64,000 nucleotides of DNA from a virus (taxonomy: Duplodnaviria; Caudoviricetes). The DNA lies in IMG/VR virus record IMGVR_UViG_3300009502_000047, positions 2,241 through 66,240 of that record. One strand, written 5' to 3'. The position numbers and the translations under genes are program-made. Shown here piece after piece: positions 1,168 to 16,923 of the stretch. The notes below the pieces were generated by a model. That model searched no databases, had not been told where the DNA came from, and was given only the letters and a program-made list of their open reading frames with translations. Within the stretch, counting starts at the first letter, position 1, and the number at the start of each line of letters is the position of its first letter.

Positions 1168-2385
1168 TTAGCTACTCTCCACTACTTTATTTTCTGTTGG
1201 AATTGGTAAACCATCTGTTATTTCGCTTAACTGATTTGTATAGATATCAAAGATAGATAATTTATTTTTACCAATTGTTATATCTGTATATTGGTCAGTA
1301 ATATGTATATCAGTTATCTTCCAATATATTGCATTACCACTTTTAAATGCACTGTAATTTAGAGGAGTAGTTATATATGGGTTACTATGTCCTTTCCACT
1401 CCATATATAATTGTTCATCTGAATTTGTTTTATCTCCAATACCAGTAAACAAAGTACCTTCAATATAACTAAGAGCTTGACCAGCAGGCCAATGTAATGT
1501 AAAGGATTCATGTGTATCCTGTCTATCATTTAAGATTGAGGATGCAAAGACATTTAAATCATCTTGTGTATAGGTTCCATCAATTTTATATTTAGCTACT
1601 AATGGAGAAGAAGTGGATGTAGATGATGTTGCTAATCCCATCATTTTACCATCTGAACTAATAACATATACCTTTTGAACTGGAGTTAATTCAGTAGACT
1701 CTATCTTACTGCATGTAGTCCATGGTTGTGTAAGATCTAAACATGACCACCCATTGGATAACCCATAATTAACACTTATTATATACTTACTTCCTCCAGC
1801 ATATGCAGTAGCAGTAAACCACATATCTAAACCAAGTGTATCAGTCATCATCTTTCTGATAGCAGATACCACCATCATATTACCAAATTCCATATCTGGA
1901 ATAGGTACTTTATCAAGTAGGGGGATAGTAGTTAAGTTACCTACTCCACTCATATCATGAAAGTTAACAGAGGTTAATATTATATTATCATTATCAACGT
2001 GATTATCAATTAAATCAACTATAAGTCTGTTAATAGTTTTTTTATTATTAAATTTATCTTTACTTTTAATTACTAAATTATGGTTATCTCCATCAGTTAA
2101 TGGGACATTATATAAAAATGATGATATTTCTTCAACAGTTACCGCAAAGATACTTTTACCCTGATCTGCACATTTAATTACCTTTGCATAGTCAAAAACA
2201 GGTTTTGGATATGTACTACAATATATCCTGACTAAATTTGCAGTTACACCATCTGATGTAGGTATAAATGATGGAGAGTTGAAGGTAGCTCTATTAACTT
2301 TCTTTGTTGACCTATCAATAGATAAATTTGTTATTTTTATTACAGTTCCATCGTTTAGTACTACAGTCCAATTTATCTCACTCAT
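1168..2385 (-). CDS. Putative baseplate hub / tail-tip protein
   Basis: 405 aa, third gene after the tape measure; call rests on size and position. Confidence 0.5.
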   Translation of the reverse strand: MSEINWTVVLNDGTVIKITNLSIDRSTKKVNRATFNSPSFIPTSDGVTANLVRIYCSTYPKPVFDYAKVIKCADQGKSIFAVTVEEISSFLYNVPLTDGDNHNLVIKSKDKFNNKKTINRLIVDLIDNHVDNDNIILTSVNFHDMSGVGNLTTIPLLDKVPIPDMEFGNMMVVSAIRKMMTDTLGLDMWFTATAYAGGSKYIISVNYGLSNGWSCLDLTQPWTTCSKIESTELTPVQKVYVISSDGKMMGLATSSTSTSSPLVAKYKIDGTYTQDDLNVFASSILNDRQDTHESFTLHWPAGQALSYIEGTLFTGIGDKTNSDEQLYMEWKGHSNPYITTPLNYSAFKSGNAIYWKITDIHITDQYTDITIGKNKLSIFDIYTNQLSEITDGLPIPTENKVVESS

Positions 2386-2877
2386 TTATATCAACTCAAA
2401 TAACATACCTTCAATCTGATCTTCCCATTGATAAATCAAACTTAAATCAAATGATTTTAACATAGGTTTAATAGATTCCTCATCATTATCAACACCTGTT
2501 ATCTTCCAATAACCATACTGTAAGATAATAGGTATATTTAACTTAGATTTTACTGTATCAACATTGATAACATATCCAATATATGGACAAAAATCAAAGT
2601 CATCATATTCAGTTCCTATGGTACATTGTGCCTTAAGAGTCTTATCATTTAATCCCAATGTTATAACTCTGGCATGATCATACATTGGTGTACCAATTGA
2701 ATTCCATATTCCACCAGTTTCACTTATAACAGTTGTATTTAACTTGCCACCAATAGTAAGATTACTTATGTTAATAGGAGGTATGTAAACTCCTGCTGAA
2801 GTATAAATTGGTTTGGCATTTGAATTGGCACTATTGATAGGTGATTCTATAATCCATAAATTAAGATATATCACCAT
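2386..2877 (-). CDS. Putative tail-tip protein
   Basis: Position in the tail operon, tightly coupled to neighbours. Confidence 0.45.
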   Translation of the reverse strand: MVIYLNLWIIESPINSANSNAKPIYTSAGVYIPPINISNLTIGGKLNTTVISETGGIWNSIGTPMYDHARVITLGLNDKTLKAQCTIGTEYDDFDFCPYIGYVINVDTVKSKLNIPIILQYGYWKITGVDNDEESIKPMLKSFDLSLIYQWEDQIEGMLFELI

Positions 2878-3337
2878 ACCACCTCATGATACTTAGATCT
2901 ATGTTATATTGATTAAATTTAGAAACATCCTGAGTTTCAGTTACATCAGTAACCAACCAACAGGTATTAACTGGTAATTTAACAGGTATCTCTGATTCAA
3001 GTACTATTAACATTATGCCCATACTAATTACATTATGTATATAAGCATTAAGCGGATTTATTACTCCATTATGAATTGTAGATGCAGTATAAATTTCACC
3101 AGTATTTATATCAGCAAGATTACCAGTTAACTTATATGATATTGGTTCTACACCAATTGGGACATTAATAGGTAATGGCCCATTATTAGCCAAAACAGAT
3201 TTAATCTTGCTACCACCAGTAATTCTATTAATCATAAAGACATAATCACCCTTGGGAACAAGAGTAAATTTTTTATTACCATATTTCCCATCAGCATGCA
3301 TATCAATTTTACTTTGATTAATTTGAAATCTCACCAC
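2861..3337 (-). CDS. Putative distal tail (Dit-like) protein
   Basis: 158 aa immediately after the tape measure gene, overlapping its stop. Confidence 0.45.
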   Translation of the reverse strand: MVRFQINQSKIDMHADGKYGNKKFTLVPKGDYVFMINRITGGSKIKSVLANNGPLPINVPIGVEPISYKLTGNLADINTGEIYTASTIHNGVINPLNAYIHNVISMGIMLIVLESEIPVKLPVNTCWLVTDVTETQDVSKFNQYNIDLSIMRWYGDIS

Positions 3338-6300
3338 TTTCTACTCACCAGTCCTATGACTCTGGCAACTTCATTAGATAATTGTGTTATTAAACTTTCA
3401 TCCATAACATTTCCCTGAATTGTAACTGGAACCGTTATATTAATTATCTTGGCCTCTGACTGTACCGGGACACTATTAACAGAGTTACCTGAATTATTAC
3501 CTACTATATTTGCTACAGACGAGCTAGTCTTATGCATTTTACTTATGGTGTTTTGTAAAGCCTGTGAAGCCTTCCACAATGCATATTGATTTCCTGTAGT
3601 ATCACCAATTGCCTTACCTGAATTAATTGCAGTCAATGTCGAATAATTCTTCTTTGTTGCATCAGCATTAACCACAAATTCATTATCACTTAACAGTGTG
3701 GGTATGCTATCAGATGTTTCACTTCCCGGCCCAGTTACTAATCCCCCAGATGCTCTTGCTCCGGGTTTTTTACTGGGTGACTCTGGTTGTGCTGTTGTTA
3801 TTCCCAATAATGCCAATACCTGGGGACTGTTGGATAAAATATACATTAGTTGTTTGGCAAATACAGGATCATATTCCATCGTACCGCTTACACTACCCCT
3901 TGAAGTAGTCAACATGGTTTGAATATCAGATAATGTCTTACCTTTAAATTTGTCAGAGTTATTCTCAATATATTTCTCTACCAGATAAAGTGATTCGTTA
4001 CCTTGAACTCCCCATTCAAATGTCTTTTTATATTCTTCATCAGTTCCTCCACCACCATTACCAGATGGATAGGTTGATTGCTGTGGTTGGTTGGTTCCTG
4101 TATTTGAAGATATTGTCCCGGTATTATTTTTTATTAAATTAGATATTTGTGCATTATATTGTGATATTGTATTCAAAATTGATGCTGCACCAGTTAATGC
4201 ACTCGTACCTAATGTATTAATCTTTGGTATGTTAGTATTAATTGAAGATGCAAGTTTACCTGTTGCTACAGATGCTGGATTTATCTGACTACTAAAAGTA
4301 ACAGCACCATCTTTGGCAGTTGAGATACTAATTCCATATTTAGATAACGCATCTATACTCGTTGCCGTAGCATTTGATTGATTGTTAAAAGCTATCTGAG
4401 CCTTTGTACCATCAGGAAGTGCTACTCCCATGGTCTTATTGGCAAGGTCACCCATCTTTAAATTTACATCAGAAGATACATTTGTTAAATCAAGGAATTT
4501 CTCTTGTACACCTGTTAATGCATTGGGAATATATTTACAGGCATCTGTCATGTTTGTTTGTGAGTCTGTCAATATGTTGGTAGCATCAACCTGTTTAATC
4601 TGTGATTCAGTACCCTTAACTACAGCATCAGACATATCATTGACATTTACACCAAAGATACTTAGGAATCCAGCCTTTTCTTTTATCTTATCAGCAAAGT
4701 CCTTCATGGCCTCTTCCTGATTGGGTGTGGACATTGCTTCATATTTATTACCCTCTAATGTCGCAAAACTGGCTAAATTACCCATACCCGGAAACATATT
4801 ATTCATGGCATTAATTGCTGGTTTAGCAGCTCCATGTTCATTTAACCAGTCATAAATACCAGATGCAGAAGTTAGAGTACCAACACCTAATCCCGGCATA
4901 CCTTCAGATACTTTGGATAATTCAGTAGGGGCTTTGGCTGCTGCTCCTATACCTAAAAATGGAAGAGTAAAAGCATTTATACCCGGTATTGAACCTGCAA
5001 GTGAAAGTGTATTTATACCCAGATTAACTGCTTTACTACCTAAATCATTGGCTCCTTTTACAAAGTCATTTTGTCTGAAATTCTCAAAAGTATCATGGAA
5101 ATTCTGCATCTTGGCATTACCAACTGCATTGATTAAAAGTCCATTTCCATAGGTACCCATTCCACCTGATCCCAAAGATAAAATCTGATCTGGTACAGGT
5201 GTATTTTCAATTGCTGTCTTTGTTGCTTTATTTGTTATATCTTTTCTAATTGCACTTAGTTCTTCATCACTTAATCCAGCAGGTAAATTATTTGTCCTGC
5301 TATTAACAAGTTGATTAGGTAAATTTTCACCTGTGGTTTTTGCTCCAAATAATGGAGCAGCAGGAACTGCATATTCACCAACAGCACCTATAATACCCCC
5401 AAGACCAAGTGCTCCTGCACCCATCATTAACGCAGTGCTTGTACCAAGGCCAATTGCAGATTCTTTGGCTGCCTCATCGTTACTTGCACCTTTACCCTTT
5501 GCAGTTCCAAAGCCTGTTAAGAGTAAAAGTGGATCTATTGGATTAATTGCAAACTCAGCACCTGCTTTTAATCTATCAGCAGCAAAAGCCTTGGGATCTT
5601 TAATAACATCTCCAACGCCACTCTTTAAGGTATCCCACCATGAAGGTGCTTCTGGTTTTGCTTCTGGAGCTGATGGGAAGTTAGTTTCTCCACCTTTAAA
5701 ATCACCACCAGCATTCTTGGTTGTTGCCTCATCAATAATTCTCTGATTGGCTTCGCTAGTTATCTTATCTAACTCATTAAACTTATCAGCTAATTCCTCT
5801 CTGGTTCTATCTACATCAGATTGTTTAACACCAGTGTCTTCACCTGTTTTTTCATCTGTTTTTGTATCTTGTTTATTCTCATCGGGTTTGGTCTTATCTT
5901 TTTCATCTGTTTTTTCATCTGTTTTTTCATCTGTTTTTTCATCTTGTTTAGTATCCTGCTTGGGTTCTCCACCAAATTTATCTTTGAGTTCTCCTAATCT
6001 CTCCCAGATATCTTTGAGCCAATCAGTTATTGATGATATATCGAATTTAAAGTCTGGGAAAGTAGGCCATGGGAAGCTAGTAATTCCACCATTTGTTATG
6101 TTACTGTTATTGGTAGTTTCATTTGAAATACCAGCAAGACCCTGAAGTTGACTTTGGTTATCAACGATTACATGGAATGCTCCACTTCCACCATATGCAC
6201 TGGATAAAAAGTTATTACTGTTATATGCAGAGTCAGCTTGGTTCTGTAATATTGAGTTATTTATGTTCATCTGGTATCTTTGGTCACTGACATAACTGTC

Positions 6301-9300
6301 AGGCAATGATACTGATGGCATAGGTGTTCCTTCAGCAAATCCCTTGATTTTAATAGGTCTATCATGATTCATTGCAGAAACTAATGCCCTGTTGGTGGGA
6401 CTTTCCATTGCCTTTTCTTTAACAATGGCTTCATGTCTGGAAACAGCAACTAAATTCTTATCTTCAGTTGGCCCTCCTGATCCCTCAATTACCCCGGTAT
6501 CACCCACTTCTGCGGGTGTGTATCCGGTAGCAAAACCAACTGCCTTGCCAACAAATGAAGCTGCACCATTAAATTCATTGACACCAGCACCTTTTCCAAG
6601 TAACAACTCGGATGGTGTTGGAATGACCATTTGGCCTGCAACATAGTTGACAACTCTACCAACTGCTTCCCATAATAACACGATTGTACTCAATGCCAAT
6701 ACTAACTTTACAACTCCCGCATATGCTCTATTTGTAGCAAATGCAAAGGTATCTACATAAGCAGAAGAAGCCAATGCTGCTTTACCAAATGTACTAAATA
6801 TTAAACTTCCACCAGCTAAAATGGACATGAATGGTTGTATCACCCACATCATTGGTACTAATGCAGCTAAGAATGTAACCAATCCTTTCTGTCCAGCCAC
6901 AGATGTTAATATACCCACTAATGTAGTTAGTCCATCAACTAGGGTAGGTAAAGATGCAATTAATCCACCATTACCATCCTTACCAACCATCATATCAGAT
7001 AGTTTATCTAGGATGGTATTTCCCTTTGTTCCTGCAGTTACCTTATTGACAACTGCATCAAATGCATCCATTAAACCCTTGACAAAGTTGGTATTTAAAA
7101 GAATCTTACTTGCCATTCCTGACATTAAGGTAGATGCTACTGCTGTAACTGCAGTTGATCTCTTCCATGCATCTACAAAGTTTCCTGCAGATACCCCCAT
7201 CTTATTAAGTTGAGCATCAATATCGATGAAATCCTTACCAAAAATCTTTGCATAAGAATAATTGGTAAACATTGACTGTAAATTAGATGCACTACTCAGT
7301 ATGGTAGTGATGGTATTTTGTAAGACCTTATATATATTGGTCAATGAGAAGTTGATACCCATAGCGGTCATGGAAACAGAAACTGCAGCCCAATTTAAGG
7401 TCTGCATATGTTTACCCATCCAATTAAGTAGTCTCTCACCAGCACCTAGATGCTTATTTAACTTCTCAAATCCCTCTATATTTTTACCTGTAGTTGATGA
7501 TTCTGACAGAACATGGGGTGCTTCATGTGGTGATATCTTATCTGCATATGATGCATTTAACTCTGTAAAATAATTTGCAAAATCAAAACCCTGTGTTTTG
7601 GCAGCTTCAACTGCTGTTTTGGGTATCAGGAAGCTACCCGATGCACTATAGATTGGTCTCTGACCACCCTGTTGTGTTACTGTCTCTTTGATATCACCCA
7701 ATGTATTAAGTTGCTTAGATGACTTTATGCCTGTAATCTGTGAGAGGAAGTTGATATTTTCCTGTTTCCATTTATTTAAATCATCTTGAGATTCAAAGTT
7801 AACTACACTCTTATATTGGGTAAATGGAGTTTGCTTAAACTCATATGATTTAGGCTTCCAATCCATCTTTTTAACAGCATCACTTGATGCAGCAATTCCA
7901 GCTTCAAATTTACTTAAGTCCGTTTTTGGGACATTTAGTTGACCAGAAATACCTGCTGCTCTTCCTGCCAAACCTTTCATGAAATTGGCATCCTGTTGGT
8001 TGATATTGGAAGTTAAAACACCACTCAAATTCTTTGTTATATCAGTAGGATTAACCAGACTAAATTTAAGGTTGCCTGATGTAAATTGTTTTGTTAAGTT
8101 ATCCATTATCAATTTAAATTCGGCAACATCAGTTGGATTATCAGTAAATCCTCTTCCCGGTAATCCCCTCTGTTTATCTCCATAGATAGTTTTATGCAAA
8201 GTATCTAAAATAGCATTTATTGCGTTAACTGAACTGGATTCGCGTCTATTTACTAAATTATTATATGTAGAGTCAACTGTTGCATTAGGATCTACCTCAC
8301 CACCAAGAGTATATCCCTTGGGTTTATCTTCACTGGAATCCCTATCCAGTATAAAACTACCCGGTTCTGCATATCCAAAGTTCTTATCACCTTCGGTATA
8401 TTCCCCCTCCAGTTTATGTCCACCAAATGGATTGACTACATCAGAAAGTGCATTTAACTTCTTAAGATTATTAATACCAATTTTGGATACGTCTTCAGGA
8501 TCAAAGATAGTCTCCCCTGCATTATACCTAATTGGAACCATCCCACCATCATTGAAGCCAGGAATTATTTTTTCCTGTATCTGTTCATGAGTATTTACCT
8601 TATTACCTGTATTTTCACTATCTTCTATCTTGGATATTTCAGATACATAATTTCCACGAATGTTCTCTTCATTTACATCATATGGTAAGTTAGATAACAT
8701 ATCAAACTTTTGTAAAAGTGGAATTAATAAGGGTGAATTTATCATTGGTCTACTGAGACGACTAAAGAAACTGTTATCTAATATCTCCCCGGAATATGAG
8801 ATACCTTCTTTTGCCCTCTTTCTACTTTCTTCTTCTAATGACCTTGTTGCATCGTACTTACTAAACTTGGTATTGTCTGGTAAATCTTGGAAAGGTATTG
8901 GTTTAAACTCTTCCAGTTGTTCAGGGATTGTCATCACATAGTCATTATGTGATAACTTAGGTAACCATGGATAATTTGATGGATGTAAAACAGAGTAGCC
9001 TTTGGGTTCAGGAGCCTTGAGAGGTAACTTACTTCTTCTGGGAAATATACCTGGACTAAAGTAGTTGTATAGACCTGATAAAAACCTTGAGTGTATAGAT
9101 GTTGGCTTATCAGAGTATCTTTTAGGTAATATAGATAAATTATTAATTTCCTTTACATTTCCAGTTATACGATTCTGTAATTCCTCATTGAATTCATCTC
9201 CAGTGTAGGTAAATTCCTCACCATATTCACCCATTGGTTGTTTATTTTCTTTGGTAGTTAAACCCTCACCTTTATCTTTAAATAATGATTCTTTATATGC

Positions 9301-12300
9301 CTGTTTATAATTTGATATTTTATTCCGTATGGATACTATATCATTTCTGTTACCACGGTTTTTTGCATCTTCAAGTTGATTTCTTAAATCAGATAATGTA
9401 TCCTTATACTCAACTTTATATTTATCCTTGTCAGAGGTTAAATCATTAAATTTACCCGTAGTAAATCGTGTATTACCCTTCAATCTATATTCTAAGTCTC
9501 TAATCCACTGGATAGGTATACCTGTCTGTCCATGGGTTTCTGCCATCTCCACATCTGATCTAAATATACCTGTTTTACCAATGTAATTGGGATCTACATT
9601 CTTACGTGTAGATTCAGTTAAGTTAGACAGTAACTTATTATTTACTGTCCTATAGATATCTTTGAATACATCAAGCCTTGAATTGTGAGTACCAGATGAA
9701 CCATACATACCTGTGCGAGTACCCGGAGTTAAACCGGGTATCTCAAATCCAAAGGATGTAATTCCATATTTCTTTAAGTCAGATAATGTAATATTGTGTC
9801 CGGTTGTAGTCTTTTTTGCTATTTTATCTAAAGACATACCCCGAGCAAAGTTGTCAATATGTTCATCAATATCCCAGATACCATCATATTCCTTCTTAGC
9901 TAACTCTGTTATTGCACCTCTATATCTGGGATCAAAGTTTGTATTTCGTCTAACATACTCCATTATTTTATCAGGTCTGGACATTGCCTTAACGTGTGGA
10001 GTTGATTTAGTCCAGTCAAAATCATCAATATTTATATCCCCAGTATCTATTTTCTGAAATAAATTAGATAATCTTTGAACTTCTGCTTCAACAACTTCCT
10101 TTTTAATCTTAAATTTATCATCACCATATTCTGCATGGATGTCACTTGGTATACCCTCAGCAAAAAGACCTAATGTACTATCAGTTAAACTTCCCTTACC
10201 CACTAACTTCTCACTATCATCAACAAATCTAACTGGATTCTGACCTTCTACATTTGGGAAAAACTTTGCTATCTTATCATTAGATTGGGTAAACTGGGTA
10301 ATAGAGTGTGATATTGCATTACCCAGAAATTTACCTGATGTCATTGTCTTAAGTATATCACTCTCTTTGCCCTTAGATAGATCAGTTGTAAAGTCATCTC
10401 GTATCAACCCTTCTTTACCTAAATTCTTAATTATCTTAGGGAAATCACCAACCGGGTCACTGCTTACTTCACCTAAATCAAGACCATATGATTTACGACC
10501 TTCAGTGATTGAGTTAATAAAGTTCTTTAACTTTCCACCCTGATTCATCGCACGTAAGAAGATACTGCTTAATGATCCGGGTGCTGGTTTGTCACCTCTA
10601 AACTCAGGGACTGCTTTATTAGTTACTGTTTTGAAAAAAGCCTTTACTCCCTGATTATAAATGTTAACATTGTGATCCTTAAATTTACTATATTCTTCAA
10701 GTGTATCAAATAACATACTTGAGTACTTAATACCTTCAAATTGGTCACGGACATATTTATATGAACTGCGACCCAGTAAATACCTTAGTTTTTCCTCATA
10801 AAATACACGTTTACCCAATTCACTATCTGCATATCTCTCTGTATTATGCTCCTTGGGTATCATGTTCCACCAAGTATCGTGAGCAGAGACTCTTTTACGT
10901 GACATTGAAAACGATAAATCTTGGAAGGTACCCAAGTGCTTACCTAATGTCCCATATCTCCTATATTTATTATTAAATTCATTCCAGTCAATTGAATGAA
11001 CATTACCAGATTCATCTGTGTTTGCTGAAGACATCAATTTACTTCGTATAAAGTCCTGTACTCTGGGAGAGTAACCTTCAATATCCTCGACCATATTACG
11101 GATGGAAGATTGATGTAATTTGGGATTAACCCAGATACCCGCATTCTGCAAAACAGGATCAGTTATAAATGGTTCTTTAATACCAGTTGTACTGGAAATA
11201 GGTATAGCCTTTATATTTTCAATATCACCTTCACCATATCCTGTACCTGCTGCAAAATCCAATATCCTCTTATTATCGTCATTAGTATATGATAATGCAA
11301 ATTTATGTGGAGTTCCTGTGTAAGATGCTGAGAACTTATCAACAGCAGGGAAAAACTCCCTTACATCTTCAGGAAGTAATGAAGGGTCAAACATTGAGAT
11401 GTCAATTGCACCCTTTTTCTCCAAGCTCTCACGTTGCTGAGCACCTCTCGAAGCAGAACCAAGTGGTGAAACTGTTTTATTTAATCTTGTGACATTACCG
11501 GGATTCTCAAATAATTTAAGATATGATCCCTGAATTGCATCAACAATCTTATTTACCTTTGTTGGAGATAATCCCCTCAACGAAGTCCTTTGTCCACTTA
11601 TTAATCTCTCAACAAATTCAAATTTCTTAAGTGTATTAACACCCTTTGCTGGATCTTGTGGCCCTCTAGGATCTATCATGTAATCCTGAATTGCTGTACG
11701 TAATTTGTAAGCCTGTTTATTTTTGTCCTCAATTATTTTAACACCAAAGTCAGATGAATAATCATCTAAGTTAGATAGTATAGCATCTGATTCTCCAATG
11801 TTACTTTTACCATGAGAAAATACCCTGAGTAACATTAAGTTATATAGATCATTGTGTTTAATCCGGGTACCTGACTTAACATTTAATCCACCCTTCCCCA
11901 ATATCTCAGAATTTATCTTATTCAAACTATCAGGTGCAAAGGAACCATATCTAACTCTGTTATTTAAATCATATATAGAGTACCCACCAGACCTCATCTG
12001 TTTATCAAATGCAGCAACAGGTACATCAGGAAGAAAAATCTGTCTGTTTTTATTCCCTCTAATAGATTCACCTGCAAAGTTGAGTACATCATTCATCTTC
12101 ATCTGTTTCTTGACACCATTATCAATAACAGTTAAAGTGCGAGTATCTAACCCCATGTACCTAGATAAGTTAGCCTTAAAATTCTTGGATATATCACCCA
12201 TAAATAAATTGGTTATTGATGCAACCTTTGGGTTCTTCTGCATCATTGTCTTGAAAATCTGACCCGTGGCTATAACATCATAAGCAGCATATTTAATCTG

Positions 12301-13176
12301 TGATTTACGGAGTTTACTTGATGCCCAGTCATGATCTGTTTTTTTAGTAAGATTGACTCCCAAAACACGAGATGCAATTGAACTTAAATCATGTTTATCA
12401 CGTTCTGCATCAATTGATCTTGATACGTGCATCGTATCAAAGATTCTATCAGTAAATCCTTTATCTTCTATATCAGATTCTTTTAATATCCCAGCCTTGG
12501 TTAAAAAAGCTAAGTCATAAGATGCATTTTGAAAGACTAAATTAGATTTGGTTTTTCTCATTAGGTGGGACAAGACCTTGGGATCATTTATCTTGTCCAT
12601 ATCTATAATATGAACTACATCGGTATCTGGATCATGAAGTTGAACTAATCTTGTATGAGCATCATGTGGTAAGATATATCTCGCTGTCTCTGTATCAATA
12701 GCAACATTCTTTGACTTCTCATAGTGTAAGATAGCTTTATTTAAATCATTGTCATTGGTAACATAAACCTGCTTGTATTTTTTAAATGCTTCATCTTCAT
12801 GAACAAGAGGTTTTATTGTAGACTGTTGATGAGTTGTGGGTATCTCATCCAATGGTTGGCCCTGATATTTATTATATCTGGCATTCTCATCATAATTCTG
12901 TATATCTATCTTGTGGACAGTAGCAATTTCATCCAGTCTCTTCCTTAATTTCTCCCTAACCTCTACACTTTCTTTTTTTTGAAATTCTATATACAATTTT
13001 TCAATATCATCATATGCTTCTTTATATCTTTTTATATCATCTCCTTTAAGTTCAGAGACCAACTTTGAATTATCAATCTGACTTAATCCCCGTCTTAACT
13101 CATAAAAAGATTGATCATTAGACAGGCCAAACCTTAATAAATTCATGTTTTCCTGCCAATTATCTTTGTAATCCAT
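3331..13176 (-). CDS. Giant tape-measure-like protein with an N-terminal DEDDy 3'-5' exonuclease domain (3281 aa)
   Basis: Follows tail tubes and chaperones. C-terminal half is Ala/Gly-rich with hydrophobic helices and the TMP-type motif ASGGLVTGPGSETSDSIPTLLSDNEFVVNA. N-terminal part has Exo I AIDTET, Exo II FQNASYD and Exo III YAAYD. Confidence 0.8.
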   Translation of the reverse strand: MDYKDNWQENMNLLRFGLSNDQSFYELRRGLSQIDNSKLVSELKGDDIKRYKEAYDDIEKLYIEFQKKESVEVREKLRKRLDEIATVHKIDIQNYDENARYNKYQGQPLDEIPTTHQQSTIKPLVHEDEAFKKYKQVYVTNDNDLNKAILHYEKSKNVAIDTETARYILPHDAHTRLVQLHDPDTDVVHIIDMDKINDPKVLSHLMRKTKSNLVFQNASYDLAFLTKAGILKESDIEDKGFTDRIFDTMHVSRSIDAERDKHDLSSIASRVLGVNLTKKTDHDWASSKLRKSQIKYAAYDVIATGQIFKTMMQKNPKVASITNLFMGDISKNFKANLSRYMGLDTRTLTVIDNGVKKQMKMNDVLNFAGESIRGNKNRQIFLPDVPVAAFDKQMRSGGYSIYDLNNRVRYGSFAPDSLNKINSEILGKGGLNVKSGTRIKHNDLYNLMLLRVFSHGKSNIGESDAILSNLDDYSSDFGVKIIEDKNKQAYKLRTAIQDYMIDPRGPQDPAKGVNTLKKFEFVERLISGQRTSLRGLSPTKVNKIVDAIQGSYLKLFENPGNVTRLNKTVSPLGSASRGAQQRESLEKKGAIDISMFDPSLLPEDVREFFPAVDKFSASYTGTPHKFALSYTNDDNKRILDFAAGTGYGEGDIENIKAIPISSTTGIKEPFITDPVLQNAGIWVNPKLHQSSIRNMVEDIEGYSPRVQDFIRSKLMSSANTDESGNVHSIDWNEFNNKYRRYGTLGKHLGTFQDLSFSMSRKRVSAHDTWWNMIPKEHNTERYADSELGKRVFYEEKLRYLLGRSSYKYVRDQFEGIKYSSMLFDTLEEYSKFKDHNVNIYNQGVKAFFKTVTNKAVPEFRGDKPAPGSLSSIFLRAMNQGGKLKNFINSITEGRKSYGLDLGEVSSDPVGDFPKIIKNLGKEGLIRDDFTTDLSKGKESDILKTMTSGKFLGNAISHSITQFTQSNDKIAKFFPNVEGQNPVRFVDDSEKLVGKGSLTDSTLGLFAEGIPSDIHAEYGDDKFKIKKEVVEAEVQRLSNLFQKIDTGDINIDDFDWTKSTPHVKAMSRPDKIMEYVRRNTNFDPRYRGAITELAKKEYDGIWDIDEHIDNFARGMSLDKIAKKTTTGHNITLSDLKKYGITSFGFEIPGLTPGTRTGMYGSSGTHNSRLDVFKDIYRTVNNKLLSNLTESTRKNVDPNYIGKTGIFRSDVEMAETHGQTGIPIQWIRDLEYRLKGNTRFTTGKFNDLTSDKDKYKVEYKDTLSDLRNQLEDAKNRGNRNDIVSIRNKISNYKQAYKESLFKDKGEGLTTKENKQPMGEYGEEFTYTGDEFNEELQNRITGNVKEINNLSILPKRYSDKPTSIHSRFLSGLYNYFSPGIFPRRSKLPLKAPEPKGYSVLHPSNYPWLPKLSHNDYVMTIPEQLEEFKPIPFQDLPDNTKFSKYDATRSLEEESRKRAKEGISYSGEILDNSFFSRLSRPMINSPLLIPLLQKFDMLSNLPYDVNEENIRGNYVSEISKIEDSENTGNKVNTHEQIQEKIIPGFNDGGMVPIRYNAGETIFDPEDVSKIGINNLKKLNALSDVVNPFGGHKLEGEYTEGDKNFGYAEPGSFILDRDSSEDKPKGYTLGGEVDPNATVDSTYNNLVNRRESSSVNAINAILDTLHKTIYGDKQRGLPGRGFTDNPTDVAEFKLIMDNLTKQFTSGNLKFSLVNPTDITKNLSGVLTSNINQQDANFMKGLAGRAAGISGQLNVPKTDLSKFEAGIAASSDAVKKMDWKPKSYEFKQTPFTQYKSVVNFESQDDLNKWKQENINFLSQITGIKSSKQLNTLGDIKETVTQQGGQRPIYSASGSFLIPKTAVEAAKTQGFDFANYFTELNASYADKISPHEAPHVLSESSTTGKNIEGFEKLNKHLGAGERLLNWMGKHMQTLNWAAVSVSMTAMGINFSLTNIYKVLQNTITTILSSASNLQSMFTNYSYAKIFGKDFIDIDAQLNKMGVSAGNFVDAWKRSTAVTAVASTLMSGMASKILLNTNFVKGLMDAFDAVVNKVTAGTKGNTILDKLSDMMVGKDGNGGLIASLPTLVDGLTTLVGILTSVAGQKGLVTFLAALVPMMWVIQPFMSILAGGSLIFSTFGKAALASSAYVDTFAFATNRAYAGVVKLVLALSTIVLLWEAVGRVVNYVAGQMVIPTPSELLLGKGAGVNEFNGAASFVGKAVGFATGYTPAEVGDTGVIEGSGGPTEDKNLVAVSRHEAIVKEKAMESPTNRALVSAMNHDRPIKIKGFAEGTPMPSVSLPDSYVSDQRYQMNINNSILQNQADSAYNSNNFLSSAYGGSGAFHVIVDNQSQLQGLAGISNETTNNSNITNGGITSFPWPTFPDFKFDISSITDWLKDIWERLGELKDKFGGEPKQDTKQDEKTDEKTDEKTDEKDKTKPDENKQDTKTDEKTGEDTGVKQSDVDRTREELADKFNELDKITSEANQRIIDEATTKNAGGDFKGGETNFPSAPEAKPEAPSWWDTLKSGVGDVIKDPKAFAADRLKAGAEFAINPIDPLLLLTGFGTAKGKGASNDEAAKESAIGLGTSTALMMGAGALGLGGIIGAVGEYAVPAAPLFGAKTTGENLPNQLVNSRTNNLPAGLSDEELSAIRKDITNKATKTAIENTPVPDQILSLGSGGMGTYGNGLLINAVGNAKMQNFHDTFENFRQNDFVKGANDLGSKAVNLGINTLSLAGSIPGINAFTLPFLGIGAAAKAPTELSKVSEGMPGLGVGTLTSASGIYDWLNEHGAAKPAINAMNNMFPGMGNLASFATLEGNKYEAMSTPNQEEAMKDFADKIKEKAGFLSIFGVNVNDMSDAVVKGTESQIKQVDATNILTDSQTNMTDACKYIPNALTGVQEKFLDLTNVSSDVNLKMGDLANKTMGVALPDGTKAQIAFNNQSNATATSIDALSKYGISISTAKDGAVTFSSQINPASVATGKLASSINTNIPKINTLGTSALTGAASILNTISQYNAQISNLIKNNTGTISSNTGTNQPQQSTYPSGNGGGGTDEEYKKTFEWGVQGNESLYLVEKYIENNSDKFKGKTLSDIQTMLTTSRGSVSGTMEYDPVFAKQLMYILSNSPQVLALLGITTAQPESPSKKPGARASGGLVTGPGSETSDSIPTLLSDNEFVVNADATKKNYSTLTAINSGKAIGDTTGNQYALWKASQALQNTISKMHKTSSSVANIVGNNSGNSVNSVPVQSEAKIINITVPVTIQGNVMDESLITQLSNEVARVIGLVSRKW
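5899..5944. repeat. 12-bp tandem repeat (about 3.8 copies) encoding (DEKT)n in the tape measure protein
   Basis: tttttcatctgt at 5899, 5911, 5923 and a partial copy at 5935. Confidence 0.9.
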
Positions 13177-13186
13177 GTTATATCAC

Positions 13187-13414
13187 CTATTTTTTACTTT
13201 CTATATGTTCAGCGTAAATTGAGCTAATTTTAAAGTCAAACATCAATCTCTGATACCATTCACCCGGATTATTCCAATCCAACAGATCAGATGGTCTTTG
13301 TCCACACATCTTGGCTAATTTACCTAAAGATAATTGTAAGTCTAAATCCCTTTGTAAATCATCTTCGGGATTCCACTTACAAAATTTCTCATCGTACGAA
13401 TCGAAATAATTCAC
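13187..13414 (-). CDS. Tail assembly chaperone, downstream ORF (gpT-like; probably reached by +1 frameshift)
   Basis: Overlaps the upstream chaperone in its +1 frame, directly before the tape measure gene. Confidence 0.65.
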   Translation of the reverse strand: MNYFDSYDEKFCKWNPEDDLQRDLDLQLSLGKLAKMCGQRPSDLLDWNNPGEWYQRLMFDFKISSIYAEHIESKK

Positions 13415-13793
13415 CTTGAAGGTTCATCACCATAAACATTGCATTAAATATTGCATACTGGTCTTCACCCGGCATAGTATCATAGGTAAACGGCCCATCT
13501 ACAATAATATGTGGCAAAATCTGCTGGCACCACTGTGCAAAGGCTTCATCAAAGTTAAACTGATCTGCTGGTGATGCAATCAACTGACCTCTTTCATCCC
13601 TAGTTTTGGGTAAAGCCTTTACCATAAGTGAGATATGTTTACCACCCAGTGGCCCTACTGGTTTCCTTATCGTATAAATATGACCTGCAATTTCCAACTT
13701 AAATTCTGTATTTACAATTGCAAGTTCTTCAGGAGACTTCTCAATCTCAACTGGTTCTTCAATCTTACTTTCTGTGTTGGTCTTTCTAACCAT
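13389..13793 (-). CDS. Tail assembly chaperone (gpG-like)
   Basis: Between tail tube and tape measure genes; ends ...TTA TTT CGA TTC GTA CGA TGA. Confidence 0.7.
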   Translation of the reverse strand: MVRKTNTESKIEEPVEIEKSPEELAIVNTEFKLEIAGHIYTIRKPVGPLGGKHISLMVKALPKTRDERGQLIASPADQFNFDEAFAQWCQQILPHIIVDGPFTYDTMPGEDQYAIFNAMFMVMNLQGELFRFVR

Positions 13794-13810
13794 ACACAAA
13801 GATATAATCC

Positions 13811-13823
13811 TACCATTTAAAAA
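13811..13823 (-). promoter_or_regulatory. Putative late promoter (TTTTTAAATGGTA)
   Basis: TATA-like box plus TGGTA, about 30 nt upstream of ATG 13793; motif recurs at 19755, 25638, 61605. Confidence 0.55.
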
Positions 13824-13829
13824 AGATTT

Positions 13830-14891
13830 TTAGTTTGTTAGCAGATAGAATGAATCTGCACTGGGTGTAATAACTTGGAAGTTAACTGTCTTCTCAAATT
13901 GATTACGTGCCTGCACTGACCTATTCATTTCAGTAAACTTAAGTGCATCAGTACCCGATATAATGGCTAATTGAGCCTCATTTATTGCAGGTGTGCCACT
14001 TAATGCTGGGCCACTTGCAGTAGGCCCATACAAATACATAGCCAGAGTACCACATCCAAGATCGTTGGATTTAGCCTGTAATCCACCAGTTGATTCGAGA
14101 TTTCCACCTCTCATGACCTGTTCAATCTGAGTCCATTGATTACTACCAAAGGTAAAGGTACCTGTGATAGTAGTTAGACCATTAAGCCAGTGTCCTCTAA
14201 TAAATGGACTACCTAAATATGCAAATTGCTCATCAAATTTCCTTGTGATATTTAAGGTCATTGACTTAGCCACAATCGATACTCCACCGACTAAAACAGC
14301 CATGTTATAGAATACCAATGGTGATTCTGTATTGGTAGCAGCAGTATAGGTTACTTCATCTATATCACTACCTGTATATGCCTTAGAAGCCATCCAGTTA
14401 AATTTGGCCTTGACAAACTGAGCTGTCTCACAGGTTATATCCATGGATGAAACTGCACAGTTAACATACAAGGTATTCTTCATGGCTTGATCATCACCCA
14501 GTATCATATCAAATACACCGGGTATATTTCCAAGTGTATAGATATAATAAGGAGTAAATGTCAAACCATCTACGCCACCAATTCCTCTCTTTGCTATTCC
14601 AGCATGTGAAACACCTGATGCTCTATTACCAAACATCGAGTGTAATAGTTCAGCTAACATAATGGGTCTCAATGAACCATCAAGAGTTCCTGAAGCCTTA
14701 AACAGTCCACCTGCCATAGATGCCACTGATGGCTGATCAATAGCTTCCTCAACGATTGGGTTCCTGCTAACAGGATCACTAAACCCGGAAAGTGTTAACT
14801 CATTAAAATCAGTCAACGTAGGTTTAGCATGTGAATCACTAAAAGCTGACTTATTTTTAACAAGTACATACCTGTCAATACCTTGGGTCAT
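13830..14891 (-). CDS. Major tail (tube) protein, paralogue 2
   Basis: 353 aa before the chaperones; shares IDRYV, FSDP, RKFDE, NGLT and NRSVQxRNQFEKT with the upstream gene. Confidence 0.7.
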   Translation of the reverse strand: MTQGIDRYVLVKNKSAFSDSHAKPTLTDFNELTLSGFSDPVSRNPIVEEAIDQPSVASMAGGLFKASGTLDGSLRPIMLAELLHSMFGNRASGVSHAGIAKRGIGGVDGLTFTPYYIYTLGNIPGVFDMILGDDQAMKNTLYVNCAVSSMDITCETAQFVKAKFNWMASKAYTGSDIDEVTYTAATNTESPLVFYNMAVLVGGVSIVAKSMTLNITRKFDEQFAYLGSPFIRGHWLNGLTTITGTFTFGSNQWTQIEQVMRGGNLESTGGLQAKSNDLGCGTLAMYLYGPTASGPALSGTPAINEAQLAIISGTDALKFTEMNRSVQARNQFEKTVNFQVITPSADSFYLLTN

Positions 14892-15979
14892 GCGTCAACA
14901 TCTCCTATGGTTATTTTGAAGTCATCATCTGTCTTAAAAGAAGCCTGCCAATTAAGTGTCTTCTCAAACTGATTTCTACCCTGAACAGACCTGTTAAATT
15001 CAATATACTTCATGTTATTAATTGCAAAACAACATGTTGAGGTAGCACCAGTTGGATCAAATAACTTCAATCTTGCATACTTCCCAAATATCGGGTTATC
15101 CAATGGTTCAAGCACAGGATCAGTTATATTTCCAATGATTGTCTGTCTAAGTGCATCCCATTGTTTGCTACCAAAGGTAATAGTACCATTTAGAGAAGTT
15201 AAACCATTCATAATTAAATCACGTAGATACGGAGTACCCAGTGTGTAATAATTCTCATCAAACTTCCTGTCAATGGTCATTGTAAAGCCTTTAGCCTCAC
15301 AATCATGCCAAACATTTCCATCATCACTTATCTGAACGACACCATTGTAAAAGTAACTACCCTCTTCTGTTGAATCTATATATCCACTTATATCTCCAAA
15401 GGTAGTGTCACCAGCACTTGGTTCTATGATGGTTGCATGCTTACCAATCCATCCAAACTTAGCTGTTGCTGCAGCACCCACGGTCATGGATAATTCCATG
15501 GACTTAACACCAACACCACCATACTGTATAATCCTACCATTACCAACGCCAGAATTTCCAGTCCCATATGCCTGATCATCACCAACTCTAAGTGTAAGAG
15601 CACGAGGCTGTGAACCTAATGTCATCTCTAGTTTTTTGGGTGATGCAGCATTATATGCTCCAAATGGATCATCACTAGCAGCCTGTGTGTTACCCGGATA
15701 TCCCATCATTGCAGATACTGCCCACATCATGTTCTTAGGTCTGAAGAAACCCTCAAATCCACCGCCTACCTTGTAAGGCCCACCGATAACGGCAGCAGCA
15801 GCTTTAAGTTTAAGAGTCTCTTCAATGGAAGGTTGTCTGTTGATTGGATCACTAAACTGCGTTACACGCATCTTATACCACTTATTGTCTGCTCCACCAT
15901 CACTATTTATAGTTCCGTAAGTATCTCCGGTACCCTCAAAGCCAGTGTGATAAGCGACATATCTATCAATATTAGCCAT
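14888..15979 (-). CDS. Major tail (tube) protein, paralogue 1
   Basis: Starts MANIDRYV after a GGAGG RBS; clear paralogue of 13830..14891. Confidence 0.7.
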   Translation of the reverse strand: MANIDRYVAYHTGFEGTGDTYGTINSDGGADNKWYKMRVTQFSDPINRQPSIEETLKLKAAAAVIGGPYKVGGGFEGFFRPKNMMWAVSAMMGYPGNTQAASDDPFGAYNAASPKKLEMTLGSQPRALTLRVGDDQAYGTGNSGVGNGRIIQYGGVGVKSMELSMTVGAAATAKFGWIGKHATIIEPSAGDTTFGDISGYIDSTEEGSYFYNGVVQISDDGNVWHDCEAKGFTMTIDRKFDENYYTLGTPYLRDLIMNGLTSLNGTITFGSKQWDALRQTIIGNITDPVLEPLDNPIFGKYARLKLFDPTGATSTCCFAINNMKYIEFNRSVQGRNQFEKTLNWQASFKTDDDFKITIGDVDA

Positions 15980-16358
15980 GTTGTACAAACCTCCTAAAGC
16001 TAAATTCTTGTTCTACTCTAATCATAGTACCACCATTATCAAAGAAATTTGTTTTCTCAAACATAAAGGATGTACAGTCAGTCACTCCCGAATTCATCAC
16101 ATCCGACTCAACAATCTGAAGAAAATCATCAGTCCTGTCAACTATGTTAATAGGATCATCAATAGTATAACCAATGATGCAGATAACCTTCCTTAGATAT
16201 GAATCAGTTGTTTCGGGTGTCGGATCAATACCAGAGATAATAACATAACATTCCTTTGGACGTAGTTGCTCCTGTCTCCTAGTATTAACCTTCCAGTTCA
16301 GCTTCTTTAACGACTTTATAACTTCATTATATACATCTATGCTAGACAACATCATCAC
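15972..16358 (-). CDS. Putative tail terminator
   Basis: About 128 aa directly before the tail tube gene. Confidence 0.5.
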   Translation of the reverse strand: MMMLSSIDVYNEVIKSLKKLNWKVNTRRQEQLRPKECYVIISGIDPTPETTDSYLRKVICIIGYTIDDPINIVDRTDDFLQIVESDVMNSGVTDCTSFMFEKTNFFDNGGTMIRVEQEFSFRRFVQHG

Positions 16359-16921
16359 CTGCTAATATAACCATGACCAAACTGATCTGGTTTAACCAAT
16401 GTCTTACCAAACATATTAACATCATTCAATGAGTAACTTTGAACACTAGATAAATTACCTTCTAACTCATATTCAGCATTCTTCATACTTAACGTAAAAG
16501 CAGTAGTAAATGCTAAATCCCATCGTTTCCAGTATTCTCTTGTTATACCAGCCCATCTCCCATGATGAATTCTGTATCCCAATACCGGATTATATGCTCC
16601 AGCACCTGGTTGAGCACCATTCTGAAGTATCTCAACAATCTGATCATTTTTTATGTCCATTCTCAAATCATATCTATAGACATAAGGTCTTTCAAGAGCA
16701 TATAAAATGTGATTTTTTCTGATAGCAGGTGTATTACGTTCTATAATCTGACCCCTAGTAGTAACAAAATGAGTCTTGTATGACCTGTTAAAATATGAGT
16801 TACAATGTTTACGCCAGAAATTCCATGCTACCTTTCCATGTTTTACTAAAATCTCATTAAACATAGGATTTAAACTAAGTCTCCTATCAAAGGTATACAC
16901 ATAACGTTTTTTAAGTAACAT
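16355..16921 (-). CDS. Putative neck / tail-completion protein
   Basis: Basic protein between adaptor and terminator positions. Confidence 0.4.
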   Translation of the reverse strand: MLLKKRYVYTFDRRLSLNPMFNEILVKHGKVAWNFWRKHCNSYFNRSYKTHFVTTRGQIIERNTPAIRKNHILYALERPYVYRYDLRMDIKNDQIVEILQNGAQPGAGAYNPVLGYRIHHGRWAGITREYWKRWDLAFTTAFTLSMKNAEYELEGNLSSVQSYSLNDVNMFGKTLVKPDQFGHGYISR

Positions 16922-16923
16922 TA

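Follow-up and report, generated by a model that had tools for sequence, protein, structure and literature searches.

An apparently active DEDDy exonuclease at the head of a viral tape measure protein, a plausible cargo for delivery at infection

The DNA analysed here (the window, 64,000 nucleotides) belongs to an uncultivated freshwater long-tailed virus, and its record is a metagenome-derived linear contig that is 46% complete. It contains a giant open reading frame which, in the interpretation that we favour on balance, encodes the tape measure protein of this virus, with an N-terminal cargo that includes a catalytically intact exonuclease and is delivered at infection. The ruler and channel-forming part would be roughly the last 1,400 residues, and the first approximately 1,900 residues would be non-ruler cargo, in which the only recognisable domain is a DEDDy exonuclease of the PolA/RNase D/NrnC type. 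The open reading frame and its N-terminal features are as follows:

3331..13176, minus strand: giant open reading frame of 3,281 aa, a stop-free frame in the tape-measure slot
12769..13176, minus strand: N-terminal leader, aa 1-136, with sub-threshold Pfam matches only
12238..12768, minus strand: DEDDy 3'-5' exonuclease domain, aa 137-313, from PF01612, an AlphaFold model and Foldseek
12688..12696, minus strand: Exo I motif D161-T-E163, aligned to the DTE of NrnC; D and E invariant in alignment A3
12514..12516, minus strand: Exo II aspartate D221, aligned to the Exo II aspartate of NrnC; invariant in A3
12277..12291, minus strand: Exo III motif Y296-x3-D300, aligned to the YAASD of NrnC; Y and D invariant in A3

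An earlier sequence-only reading had pointed to motifs of the DnaQ superfamily at about aa 140-310, and profile searches and structure prediction both agree with it. The Pfam model PF01612 (DNA_pol_A_exo1) matches aa 137-313 with an E-value of 4.7e-22 and 79.1 bits against a cut-off of 23.6, covering profile positions 2-170 of 173, and the match of the NCBIfam models for bifunctional exonuclease/DNA polymerases is confined to their exonuclease part (E 3.3e-21). The AlphaFold model of the domain (pLDDT 93.9, pTM 0.91) has an RNase H-like alpha/beta fold of the DnaQ-like kind, for which Foldseek returned 130 PDB chains at E<=0.001. The best of these were NrnC, the Pol I exonuclease, RNase D, Rrp6 and WRN, with TM scores of about 0.7 (NrnC 7mqe: E 4.1e-10, TM 0.71-0.76), and the best PDB match by sequence was also to NrnC (7mpl, E 7.4e-9). 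The motifs begin at aa 159 (AIDTET), aa 215 (FQNASYDL) and aa 296 (YAAYD) and align to Exo I, II and III of NrnC. The nearest structures include nanoRNases, which act on very short oligonucleotides, and as regards the substrate this counts against our main interpretation.

Residues D161, E163, D221, Y296 and D300 are invariant in all eight rows of alignment A3, which include five tape-measure sequences only 15-23% identical to the window domain. The active site is intact and the domain apparently active. Several DEDD-fold domains of other proteins are inactive binders, and here too the fold might merely bind and plug the DNA end, or take part in assembly or dock a chaperone, holding the leading genome end undegraded; its predicted place, which would adjoin the genome end, suits such a role. 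We nevertheless regard a purely structural role as improbable, because invariance of the five catalytic residues at such divergence is expected of retained chemistry.

No polymerase family was detected by Pfam anywhere in the giant open reading frame, as had been claimed for the region after the exonuclease. The PolB of the virus, encoded at 46696-50097, does have its own proofreading domain (PF03104, E 3.2e-16), for which reason the exonuclease is not the replicative proofreader. The best matches of this PolB among phage records are haloarchaeal tailed viruses. The window also encodes an ERCC4+HhH nuclease and a TrmB-type HTH protein, a contig of one relative was binned in a Methanospirillum MAG, and no tRNA was found in the 64,000 nucleotides. 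The hosts are possibly archaeal, these hints being weak, and no host is assigned.

Identification of the giant protein as a tape measure rests largely on its position and on its homology to relatives, because the PHROG tape-measure profiles match only about 70 of its residues; the Pfam and NCBIfam tape-measure models gave no match. The features concerned are:

6364..7482, minus strand: tape-measure core, aa 1899-2271, with the hydrophobic segments of aa 2071-2178, from BLASTP and hydropathy
3541..3759, minus strand: C-terminal tape-measure motif (GG...SDSIP...LSDNEFVV), aa 3140-3212, from phrog_25241 and phrog_17300
13187..13799, minus strand: two overlapping small open reading frames (136 and 75 aa) just upstream of the giant one, from the layout of reading frames
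13830..15988, minus strand: two tandem tail-tube paralogues (353 and 366 aa), phrog_290 at E 1.2e-13 and 1.4e-11
1168..3337, minus strand: three downstream genes (158, 163 and 405 aa), kept after the giant open reading frame in relatives

The gene order runs from the two tube genes through a probable chaperone pair to the giant open reading frame and the probable distal-tail genes, and is the same in relatives, which places the 3,281-aa protein at the tape-measure position as originally proposed. The 353-aa tube protein also matches PF18906 (Phage_tube_2, E 1.3e-11). The 136-aa and 75-aa proteins are probably the tail assembly chaperones, judged from their position, and the former is found directly upstream of the giant open reading frame in seven of the 11 relative loci searched. 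On the downstream side, tblastn located the 405-aa protein in 7/11 of the relative loci, the 158-aa protein in two and the 163-aa protein in one; profile searches assigned none of the three to a family, and they are probably distal tail proteins. As there is no sheath-sized gene between the capsid and tube genes, the tail is probably non-contractile.

Within the protein itself, aa 1899-2271 share homology with the core of P0113, a 4,862-aa open reading frame in a syntenic position that strongly matches tape-measure profiles such as phrog_305 (E 3e-33). In BLASTP the core found this and three other syntenic giant open reading frames (E 9e-19 for P0113, 2e-26 for P0116, 1e-19 for P0114 and 5.5e-18 for P0115). 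Hydrophobic segments, defined by Kyte-Doolittle windows above 1.5, lie at aa 2071-2178 and aa 2581-2601. At aa 3140-3212 two profiles annotated as tail length tape measure protein match (phrog_25241, E 8.5e-14; phrog_17300, E 1e-10), and the motif found there occurs three times in P0113. Together with the conserved gene order, these observations uphold the description of the C-terminal half as tape-measure-like.

Given that the record is an incomplete linear contig from a metagenome, the exonuclease and the tape measure could in principle be separate genes that a misassembly has joined. The short contigs of all four sequencing runs that cover the open reading frame do stop at about 5915-5944, within an internal repeat:

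5842..5964, minus strand: Lys/Asp/Glu/Thr-rich repeat (TDEK units), with one unit less in a second allele

However, this break sits far downstream of the exonuclease, within the ruler half. A single 32.9-kb contig of run X1, which may be the source run, extends across 5915-13900, and contigs of runs X5 and X7 overlap over the start of the open reading frame, the exonuclease and the junction downstream of it. The four runs come from three studies, and no indels were listed in the contigs over the open reading frame. The same architecture is present in the second allele, a 3,501-aa protein (P0003) that is 99% identical to the window protein and was assembled separately on a 17.6-kb contig, and the fusion recurs in diverged relatives. 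A search for shorter proteins was empty, and thus no split form of the N-terminal 700 residues was seen. An artefact, which the sequence-only reading had named as what would overturn its proposal, is very improbable on this evidence and effectively refuted already; the open reading frame is continuous. Among the runs listed there were no RNA datasets containing the window sequence.

The N-terminal region outside the exonuclease has no other recognisable domain:

8557..12237, minus strand: orphan cargo region, aa 314-1540, with no Pfam, PHROG or NCBIfam family
8518..8556, minus strand: Gly-Gly linker (FNDGGMVP...), the natural insertion site of a 224-aa module, from P0003 and run contigs

Among 1.84 billion representatives, the leader (aa 1-136) had no relatives beyond its own cluster, and aa 314-1540 likewise found only their own cluster. 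Pfam, PHROGs and NCBIfam gave no second enzyme in aa 314-1540; the methyltransferase and HhH relics suggested earlier were not borne out by any profile search. An ESM Atlas feature search with aa 321-1100 returned only unnamed clusters (scores <=0.88), and an AlphaFold2 single-sequence model of aa 331-1100 had a pLDDT of 36.3, too low to use. When the N-terminal 700 residues were compared with 50,697 phage records, the only matches were the Pol A genes of two Pseudanabaena phages, and no close relatives were found among viral contigs. The major capsid protein, portal and tape-measure core had no match in the phage records.

The Gly-Gly linker marks a point at which a whole module is gained or lost in natural populations. 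The 3,501-aa allele carries there an extra 224-aa module with an HEIAH motif, flanked by FNDGG/FNRGG repeats and lacking a significant Pfam match. One contig of run X7 has about 666 extra bases at 8543-8548, whereas contigs of runs X1 and X6 cross the site without them. Modules with HExxH motifs are found in the 3,501-aa allele, P0114 and L013; in the window allele the sole match is HEAPH, with a proline inside the motif, and is not convincing.

A search for the same architecture in other viral genomes, proposed alongside the original claim, showed that the fusion is recurrent. Of 10 distinct lineages of core-related tape measures, six carry an N-terminal exonuclease with invariant catalytic residues, making it the commonest cargo of the family. 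Our own exonuclease HMM detects it in these six with E-values from 1e-51 to 8e-14, while the Pfam model passes its cut-off in P0114, in L009 and in the window protein, falls short of it in L007, and gives no match in L010 and L014. The other lineages have at the same position a GNAT domain (L013, PF00583, E 1.1e-9), an ART-like module (P0113, a weak ART-PolyVal match, E 0.027) or sequence without an assigned family. A parallel in layout is the 3,330-aa protein of L007, with an N-terminal DEDDy exonuclease, about 2,000 unassigned residues, the same core family and the same flanking genes. What it has in common with the window protein is limited to the exonuclease and the core, which are 21-25% identical; no homology was detected between the middle regions, and the L007 exonuclease is much further from the family consensus (16.5 bits versus 79 bits). 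The approximately 1,200 residues that follow the window exonuclease have no detectable homology to their counterpart in the other lineage with an exonuclease (P0114, P0115, L009, L010 and L014), in which about 2,000 aa of the middle are conserved, and an HMM built from P0114 and P0115 matches only the exonuclease and core of the window protein. For a tree of 29 exonuclease domains, in which long branches were flagged, 30% of the bootstrap replicates recovered the relevant grouping as monophyletic, and the tree neither shows nor excludes a single acquisition by the window lineage and the other lineage.

The best reading of these comparisons is that the N-terminal cargo region of the tape measure may be swapped between lineages. 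More tentatively, the head-proximal half of the tape measure might be a general enzyme carrier in this virus group, with exonuclease, acetyltransferase, ADP-ribosyltransferase-like and metallopeptidase-like modules exchanged at Gly-Gly linkers, possibly even between co-circulating strains, and with the exonuclease trimming the leading genome end or host defence nucleic acids during passage of the DNA through the channel. If this were true, the siphovirus tail lumen would be an effector injector comparable to the polyvalent-protein and internal-core systems, and the nuclease a new class of tail-delivered enzyme.

In phages that have been studied, the tape measure is fixed by its C-terminus in the tail tip and exits the tail ahead of the DNA. 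The N-terminal cargo should therefore be head-proximal, beside the leading end of the genome, and would be the last part of the protein to enter the cell, directly before the DNA. There, at the entry channel or just within it, the exonuclease would act on free 3' ends. It might trim the incoming genome end, for example baring the complementary single strands of terminal repeats so that the genome can circularise or be primed, or it might degrade nucleic acids of the host, or short oligonucleotides, that would hinder infection. Carriage of the nuclease in the virion and its delivery are plausible. The analysis shows the domain with its fold and intact active site, the gene position, the continuous reading frame and the conserved fusion, and from these we infer packaging, delivery, substrate and timing. 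The case for delivery is strengthened because the fusion is conserved and its catalytic residues do not vary, and because sister proteins have effector-type cargo in the same place. A difficulty is that a folded 20-kDa domain and about 1,500 further residues per chain are hard to place in the lumen of the tail tube.

The awkward size of the cargo would be avoided if the giant protein were a polyprotein cleaved at assembly, with only the C-terminal ruler entering the tail and the exonuclease working late inside the infected cell, for instance in recombination, concatemer processing or DNA maturation. Co-expression with late genes would then be all that the fusion provides. The tape measure proteins of lambda and T5 are described as proteolytically processed (PMC12617516), the modules of this family are bounded by Gly-Gly linkers, and the HExxH modules noted above are possible processing peptidases. 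However, the window allele lacks a convincing module of this kind, and fusion to a tail protein in six of 10 lineages is not evidently needed by a late intracellular exonuclease. The sister GNAT and ART-like cargoes belong to classes proposed in the consulted parts of two papers to be injected (PMC5512222; PMC7824862), and in the sole studied precedent, P23-45 gp96, the enzyme remains on the full-size tape measure in virions. We consider cleavage unlikely, and delivery with the tape measure remains our preferred explanation.

The usual view of tape measure proteins is that they set tail length and form a channel, with cell-wall hydrolases as their only additional enzymes. P23-45 showed that an RNA polymerase can be carried as well, and the present family suggests a broader strategy, in which various nucleic-acid or protein-modifying enzymes occupy the N-terminal half. 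If delivered, the exonuclease would act in the first moments of infection, a stage that is hard to study, and a 180-residue domain with a known active site offers an assayable handle on genome-end handling or neutralisation of host nucleic acids at entry. The presence/absence polymorphism of a whole module in lake populations also allows the function of the cargo to be tested by comparing strains.

The sequence-only reading had called this a new system with no described example. That was overstated, as a tape measure with an N-terminal nucleic-acid enzyme is already published and the system is not wholly new; as for the exonuclease-tape-measure fusion itself, none was found in the literature searched, supplementary files apart. 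In the accessible part of PMC7824862, the terms "tape measure protein" and "exonuclease domain" occur unrelated to each other. The published precedent is gp96 of P23-45 (Chaban et al. 2024; PMC10770324), which has relatives in P74-26, G20c and TSP4. The consulted part of that paper describes a tape measure whose N-terminal part is a virion RNA polymerase. Virions were shown to contain this enzyme still joined to the rest of the full-size tape measure, and its delivery together with the DNA was proposed. On that description both gp96 (5,002 aa) and the window protein (3,281 aa) are giant and have a nucleic-acid enzyme in the N-terminal part, followed by ruler parts that are transmembrane or hydrophobic. 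They differ in that the gp96 enzyme is a two-barrel RNA polymerase whereas that of the window is a DEDDy exonuclease, and the window protein is known from sequence alone; the window allele also has no metallopeptidase domain. A gp96-type two-barrel polymerase found no support in the window protein: its sole DxDxD (aa 182) falls within the exonuclease domain, and no such motif is conserved across the five proteins scanned (P0001, which is the window protein, and P0113-P0116). In phmmer the 1,220 residues after the exonuclease (aa 321-1540) gave no match to PDB sequences at E<=10 and therefore have no detectable match to the deposited gp96 fragments. A very diverged polymerase is conceivable, the fold of aa 331-1100 having been modelled at pLDDT 36 only.

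A second comparison is with the polyvalent proteins of phages and conjugative elements (Iyer et al. 2017; PMC5512222). These are likewise very large chains made up of enzymatic modules, presumed to be injected along with the DNA. The sister tape measures have a GNAT domain, a weak ART-PolyVal match and, in some, HExxH modules, all of them domain classes named for polyvalent proteins. In the main text of that paper "tape measure" does not occur and "exonuclease" occurs in the reference list only. The window protein was not classed as a polyvalent protein, as it has one recognisable enzyme domain and no convincing zincin-like HExxH peptidase. Finally, NrnC, diDNase, RNase D and the Pol I proofreading domain (PF01612) have the same fold and DEDDy catalytic set as the window domain. 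They are free-standing or polymerase-linked cellular enzymes, and the best family models are exonuclease/polymerase fusions, whereas the window exonuclease heads a tail protein of 3,281 aa without a polymerase or HRDC domain.

The giant ORF is a single open frame of 3,281 codons on the minus strand of the window (3331-13176), and the sequence-only reading had placed it at the tape-measure position. The gene layout agrees with this, with tube and putative chaperone genes on one side of the ORF and the downstream genes on the other.

Genes around the giant ORF (window coordinates, strand, feature, basis)
21591-24956, minus: large terminase with intein (family searches)
19895-21433, minus: ORF in portal position (position only; no PHROG or Pfam match and no match in phage records)
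18694-19728, minus: protease (family search)
17334-18209, minus: major capsid protein (family search)
15972-17334, minus: three small ORFs (no PHROG family)
14888-15988 and 13830-14891, minus: two tail-tube paralogues (phrog_290 for both)
13389-13799 and 13187-13414, minus: two overlapping small ORFs in chaperone position (ORF layout)
3331-13176, minus: giant ORF (open frame)
1168-3337, minus: genes of 158, 163 and 405 aa, downstream of the giant ORF (ORF layout)

The 353-aa tail-tube paralogue also matched PF18906 (E 1.3e-11), and the window ORF layout has no sheath-sized ORF between the capsid and tube genes. The two tube paralogues are in tandem (13830-15988, minus strand) and diverged, and three relative loci (L005, L013 and L016) likewise have two tube matches upstream of the giant ORF. 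Within the giant protein, PHROG tape-measure profiles match residues 3140-3212 only, at a Gly-Gly...SDSIP...LSDxEFV motif (phrog_25241, E 8.5e-14; phrog_17300, E 1e-10), and by hydropathy aa 2071-2178 and 2581-2601 are membrane-like. The comparative evidence is the stronger argument. A record reached through a tail-tube relative in viral contigs (record G001) has a 4,862-aa ORF in the same slot, whose C-terminal half matches tape-measure profiles strongly (phrog_305, E 3e-33; phrog_1272, E 5.6e-15) and whose residues 1868-2212 align to aa 1899-2271 of the window protein, the tape-measure core (E 9e-19). The order tube, chaperone, giant ORF and downstream genes is kept in the fetched relatives, and the 11 relative loci searched gave matches to the tube (10), the chaperone (7) and the 405-aa downstream protein (7). 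The giant ORF is accepted here as a probable tape measure protein, more from position and homology to relatives than from direct profile matches.

A DEDDy exonuclease without a following polymerase domain had been described in this ORF. A Pfam search placed PF01612 (DNA_pol_A_exo1) at residues 137-313 (window 12238-12768), with an E-value of 4.7e-22 and 79.1 bits (curated cut-off 23.6 bits), over profile positions 2-170 of 173. The best NCBIfam models were bifunctional exonuclease/DNA polymerases, matched in their exonuclease part only (E 3.3e-21), with RNase D next; Pfam and NCBIfam gave no polymerase, HRDC or any other family elsewhere in the ORF. The motifs AIDTET (aa 159), FQNASYDL (aa 215) and YAAYD (aa 296) coincide with Exo I, II and III of NrnC in a HMMER alignment to 7mpl (E 7.4e-9), and the catalytic set is D161, E163, D221, Y296 and D300. 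Residues 126-342 were modelled with AlphaFold2 from a 29-sequence alignment; the model had a mean pLDDT of 93.9 and a pTM of 0.91, and Foldseek found 130 PDB chains for it at E<=0.001, with NrnC as the top match (E 4.1e-10, TM 0.71-0.76) and Aquifex Pol I, apicoplast polymerase, RNase D, Rrp6, Nibbler and WRN also at the top. The model and its neighbours speak against a domain that does not fold as DnaQ-like. Family matches, motifs and fold therefore confirm the exonuclease. PolB of this virus has, as had been stated, a proofreading domain of its own (PF03104, E 3.2e-16), and for this reason we do not regard the tape-measure exonuclease as the replicative proofreader.

The source record, a linear contig in IMG/VR, is 66,240 bases long and has an estimated completeness of 46%. 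In a large protein database (lengths searched 1,804-5,742 aa) only two proteins matched aa 1-700: the product of the record itself and a second protein of 3,501 aa, encoded on a 17,630-base contig of an ENA assembly. The latter is 99% identical to the window protein on either side of an insertion of 224 residues that follows about aa 1545. Eight runs from freshwater or lakes, in three studies, contain at least 0.91 of the ORF's sampled words. Contigs from the four runs compared at contig level, one of them possibly the source of the record, cover 30 of 30 ORF bins, and no indels are listed for them. A 32.9-kb contig of run X1 extends across 5915-13900 with zero differences, and a 2.5-kb contig of run X5 across 11365-13863 contains the chaperone, the ORF start and the exonuclease with its downstream junction. 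These contigs link the exonuclease to its flanks and support the continuity of the ORF; together with the ENA allele and the four runs without indels, they effectively exclude an assembly chimera.

In all four runs short-read contigs break at about 5915-5944, inside a TDEK-type charged repeat of the ruler half (5842-5964, minus strand) whose copy number varies between alleles. One contig of run X7 has about 666 extra bases at 8543-8548, where the 224-aa module is inserted, while contigs of X1 and X6 pass through without them, and both alleles therefore circulate. The inserted module (site within 8518-8556), found in the ENA allele and the X7 contig and absent from the window, contains a HEIAH (zincin-like) motif, has FNDGG/FNRGG repeats on both sides and gave no significant Pfam match.

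A comparison of the first 1,200 residues of the window protein with 1.84 billion representative proteins gave 109 matches at E<=0.001. Those outside the protein's own cluster (best E 4.6e-10) fell only on the exonuclease region, about aa 50-365 and mostly 130-330, and most were proteins of about 600 aa with the domain N-terminal. Both the leader and the stretch of ~1,200 residues that follows the exonuclease are orphans. A search with the core (aa 1880-2300) led to P0114, in which PF01612 is likewise N-terminal. Three cores were aligned (A2), and a scan of viral, metagenome and genome contigs with this alignment led to further giant ORFs. With near-identical copies merged, there are 10 distinct core-related tape measures, and six, including the window's, have an N-terminal exonuclease.

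Distinct core-related tape measures (protein or locus, length, N-terminal region)
Window lineage, P0001 and its P0003 allele (99%): 3,281 and 3,501 aa; DEDDy exonuclease
Second exonuclease lineage, P0114: 3,910 aa; DEDDy exonuclease
Second exonuclease lineage, P0115 on L007 (L015, 99.7%): 3,330 aa; DEDDy exonuclease
Second exonuclease lineage, L009: at least 3,169 aa; DEDDy exonuclease
Second exonuclease lineage, L010: 3,353 aa; DEDDy exonuclease
Second exonuclease lineage, L014: 3,443 aa; DEDDy exonuclease
Without exonuclease, P0113 (L012, 97%): 4,862 aa; module in common with P0116; weak PF18760 ART-PolyVal match (E 0.027, below cut-off)
Without exonuclease, P0116: 2,318 aa; module in common with P0113
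Without exonuclease, L008: about 1,690 aa; cargo of no assigned family
Without exonuclease, L013 (L011, L016, 99-100%): 2,646 aa; GNAT PF00583 (E 1.1e-9)

The five members of the second lineage have 28-36% mutual identity over their full length. PF01612 is above its cut-off in the window protein, P0114 (24.8 bits) and L009 (26.6 bits) and below it in L007 (16.5 bits, E 0.0076), and L010 and L014 gave no Pfam exonuclease match. Our own HMM, built from the representative matches with P0001, P0114 and P0115 in the training set and L009, L010 and L014 outside it, matched these last three with E-values of 1.6e-17, 9.4e-16 and 8.1e-14. The Exo I D and E, Exo II D and Exo III Y and D are invariant across the eight rows of an alignment of the window domain, four second-lineage domains and three free-standing relatives. 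Second-lineage domains are 15-23% identical to the window's, and apart from the exonuclease, the core and some short stretches the two lineages have nothing in common; a 29-domain tree is compatible with a single acquisition of the exonuclease as well as with several. L015 (3140-12643) and L007 (3167-13159) are 99.885% identical in DNA, and the L015 tape measure has three in-frame stops (TAG, TGA, TAA) in place of the Glu, Trp and Glu of L007. The first of these stops is inside the exonuclease domain, and they point to a defective variant or to errors in base calling.

HExxH modules occur in three lineages. The N-terminal cargo of the L013 tape measure (4454-12391; also L011 and L016) has GNAT in two stretches and a HELIH motif, and one copy of this type comes from a 25-kb contig that bins with a Methanospirillum MAG. 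The 4,862-aa and 2,318-aa tape measures (L004 3348-17933, minus; L005 6479-13435, plus) have a common module, NLTFWRG...SG[KR]WFTPD..., between Gly-Gly linkers; in the longer protein it is this module that matches, weakly and below the cut-off, PF18760, an ADP-ribosyltransferase family of polyvalent proteins. With GNAT or ART-like modules in the same place in sister proteins, HExxH modules, and gain or loss of a whole module between Gly-Gly linkers in natural populations, the cargo looks like injected effectors, and the pattern fits a cargo region with effectors of the polyvalent-protein type (PMC5512222).

An archaeal host is indicated weakly and indirectly. One hint is the relative's contig in the Methanospirillum MAG. 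The best PolB matches in phage records are haloarchaeal tailed viruses, and an ERCC4 nuclease with a C-terminal HhH (57889-58530, plus) and a TrmB/HTH_11-type regulator (31384-31968, minus) would add an archaeal flavour consistent with them. The window also encodes a Cas4-like PD-(D/E)XK nuclease (52777-53463, plus), and the large terminase (1,121 aa; 21591-24956, minus) and family B DNA polymerase (1,133 aa; 46696-50097, plus) both have inteins with LAGLIDADG homing-endonuclease domains (PF14890, PF14528).

In lambda, C-terminal tape-measure residues bind the tip hub and the bulk of the protein occupies the tube lumen; the protein must be ejected before the genome and then contributes to a trans-envelope channel (PMC12617516). 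Virions of Thermus phage P23-45 contain an N-terminal RNA polymerase within the full-size gp96 protein, and the authors of that work propose a role for it at the channel during DNA entry (PMC10770324). The N-terminal cargo of the window protein would be head-proximal, beside the leading genome end, and would enter last. DNA 3' ends are favoured as the likely substrate because in sequence the domain is closest to polymerase-linked proofreading families, and short oligonucleotides may also be in play given the structural neighbours NrnC and diDNase. At the usual tape-measure scale of ~0.15 nm per residue, the predicted tail length is about 200 nm for the ruler part from aa ~1900 and about 490 nm for the whole chain.

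The sequence-only reading knew of no described example. Our literature searches found no described exonuclease-tape-measure fusion, and the main text of the polyvalent-protein paper has no mention of tape measures or DEDD exonucleases (PMC5512222). The design itself has a precedent. The closest published case is P23-45 gp96, which has the same design with another enzyme, an RNA polymerase instead of an exonuclease. A motif scan and a PDB sequence search did not find the tested RNA-polymerase features in the window protein, and a very diverged polymerase may lie within its orphan region. The window lineage is very different in sequence from the second exonuclease lineage and its exonuclease is much more canonical. 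The window also adds natural module polymorphism and evidence that N-terminal cargo is exchangeable across the tape-measure family.
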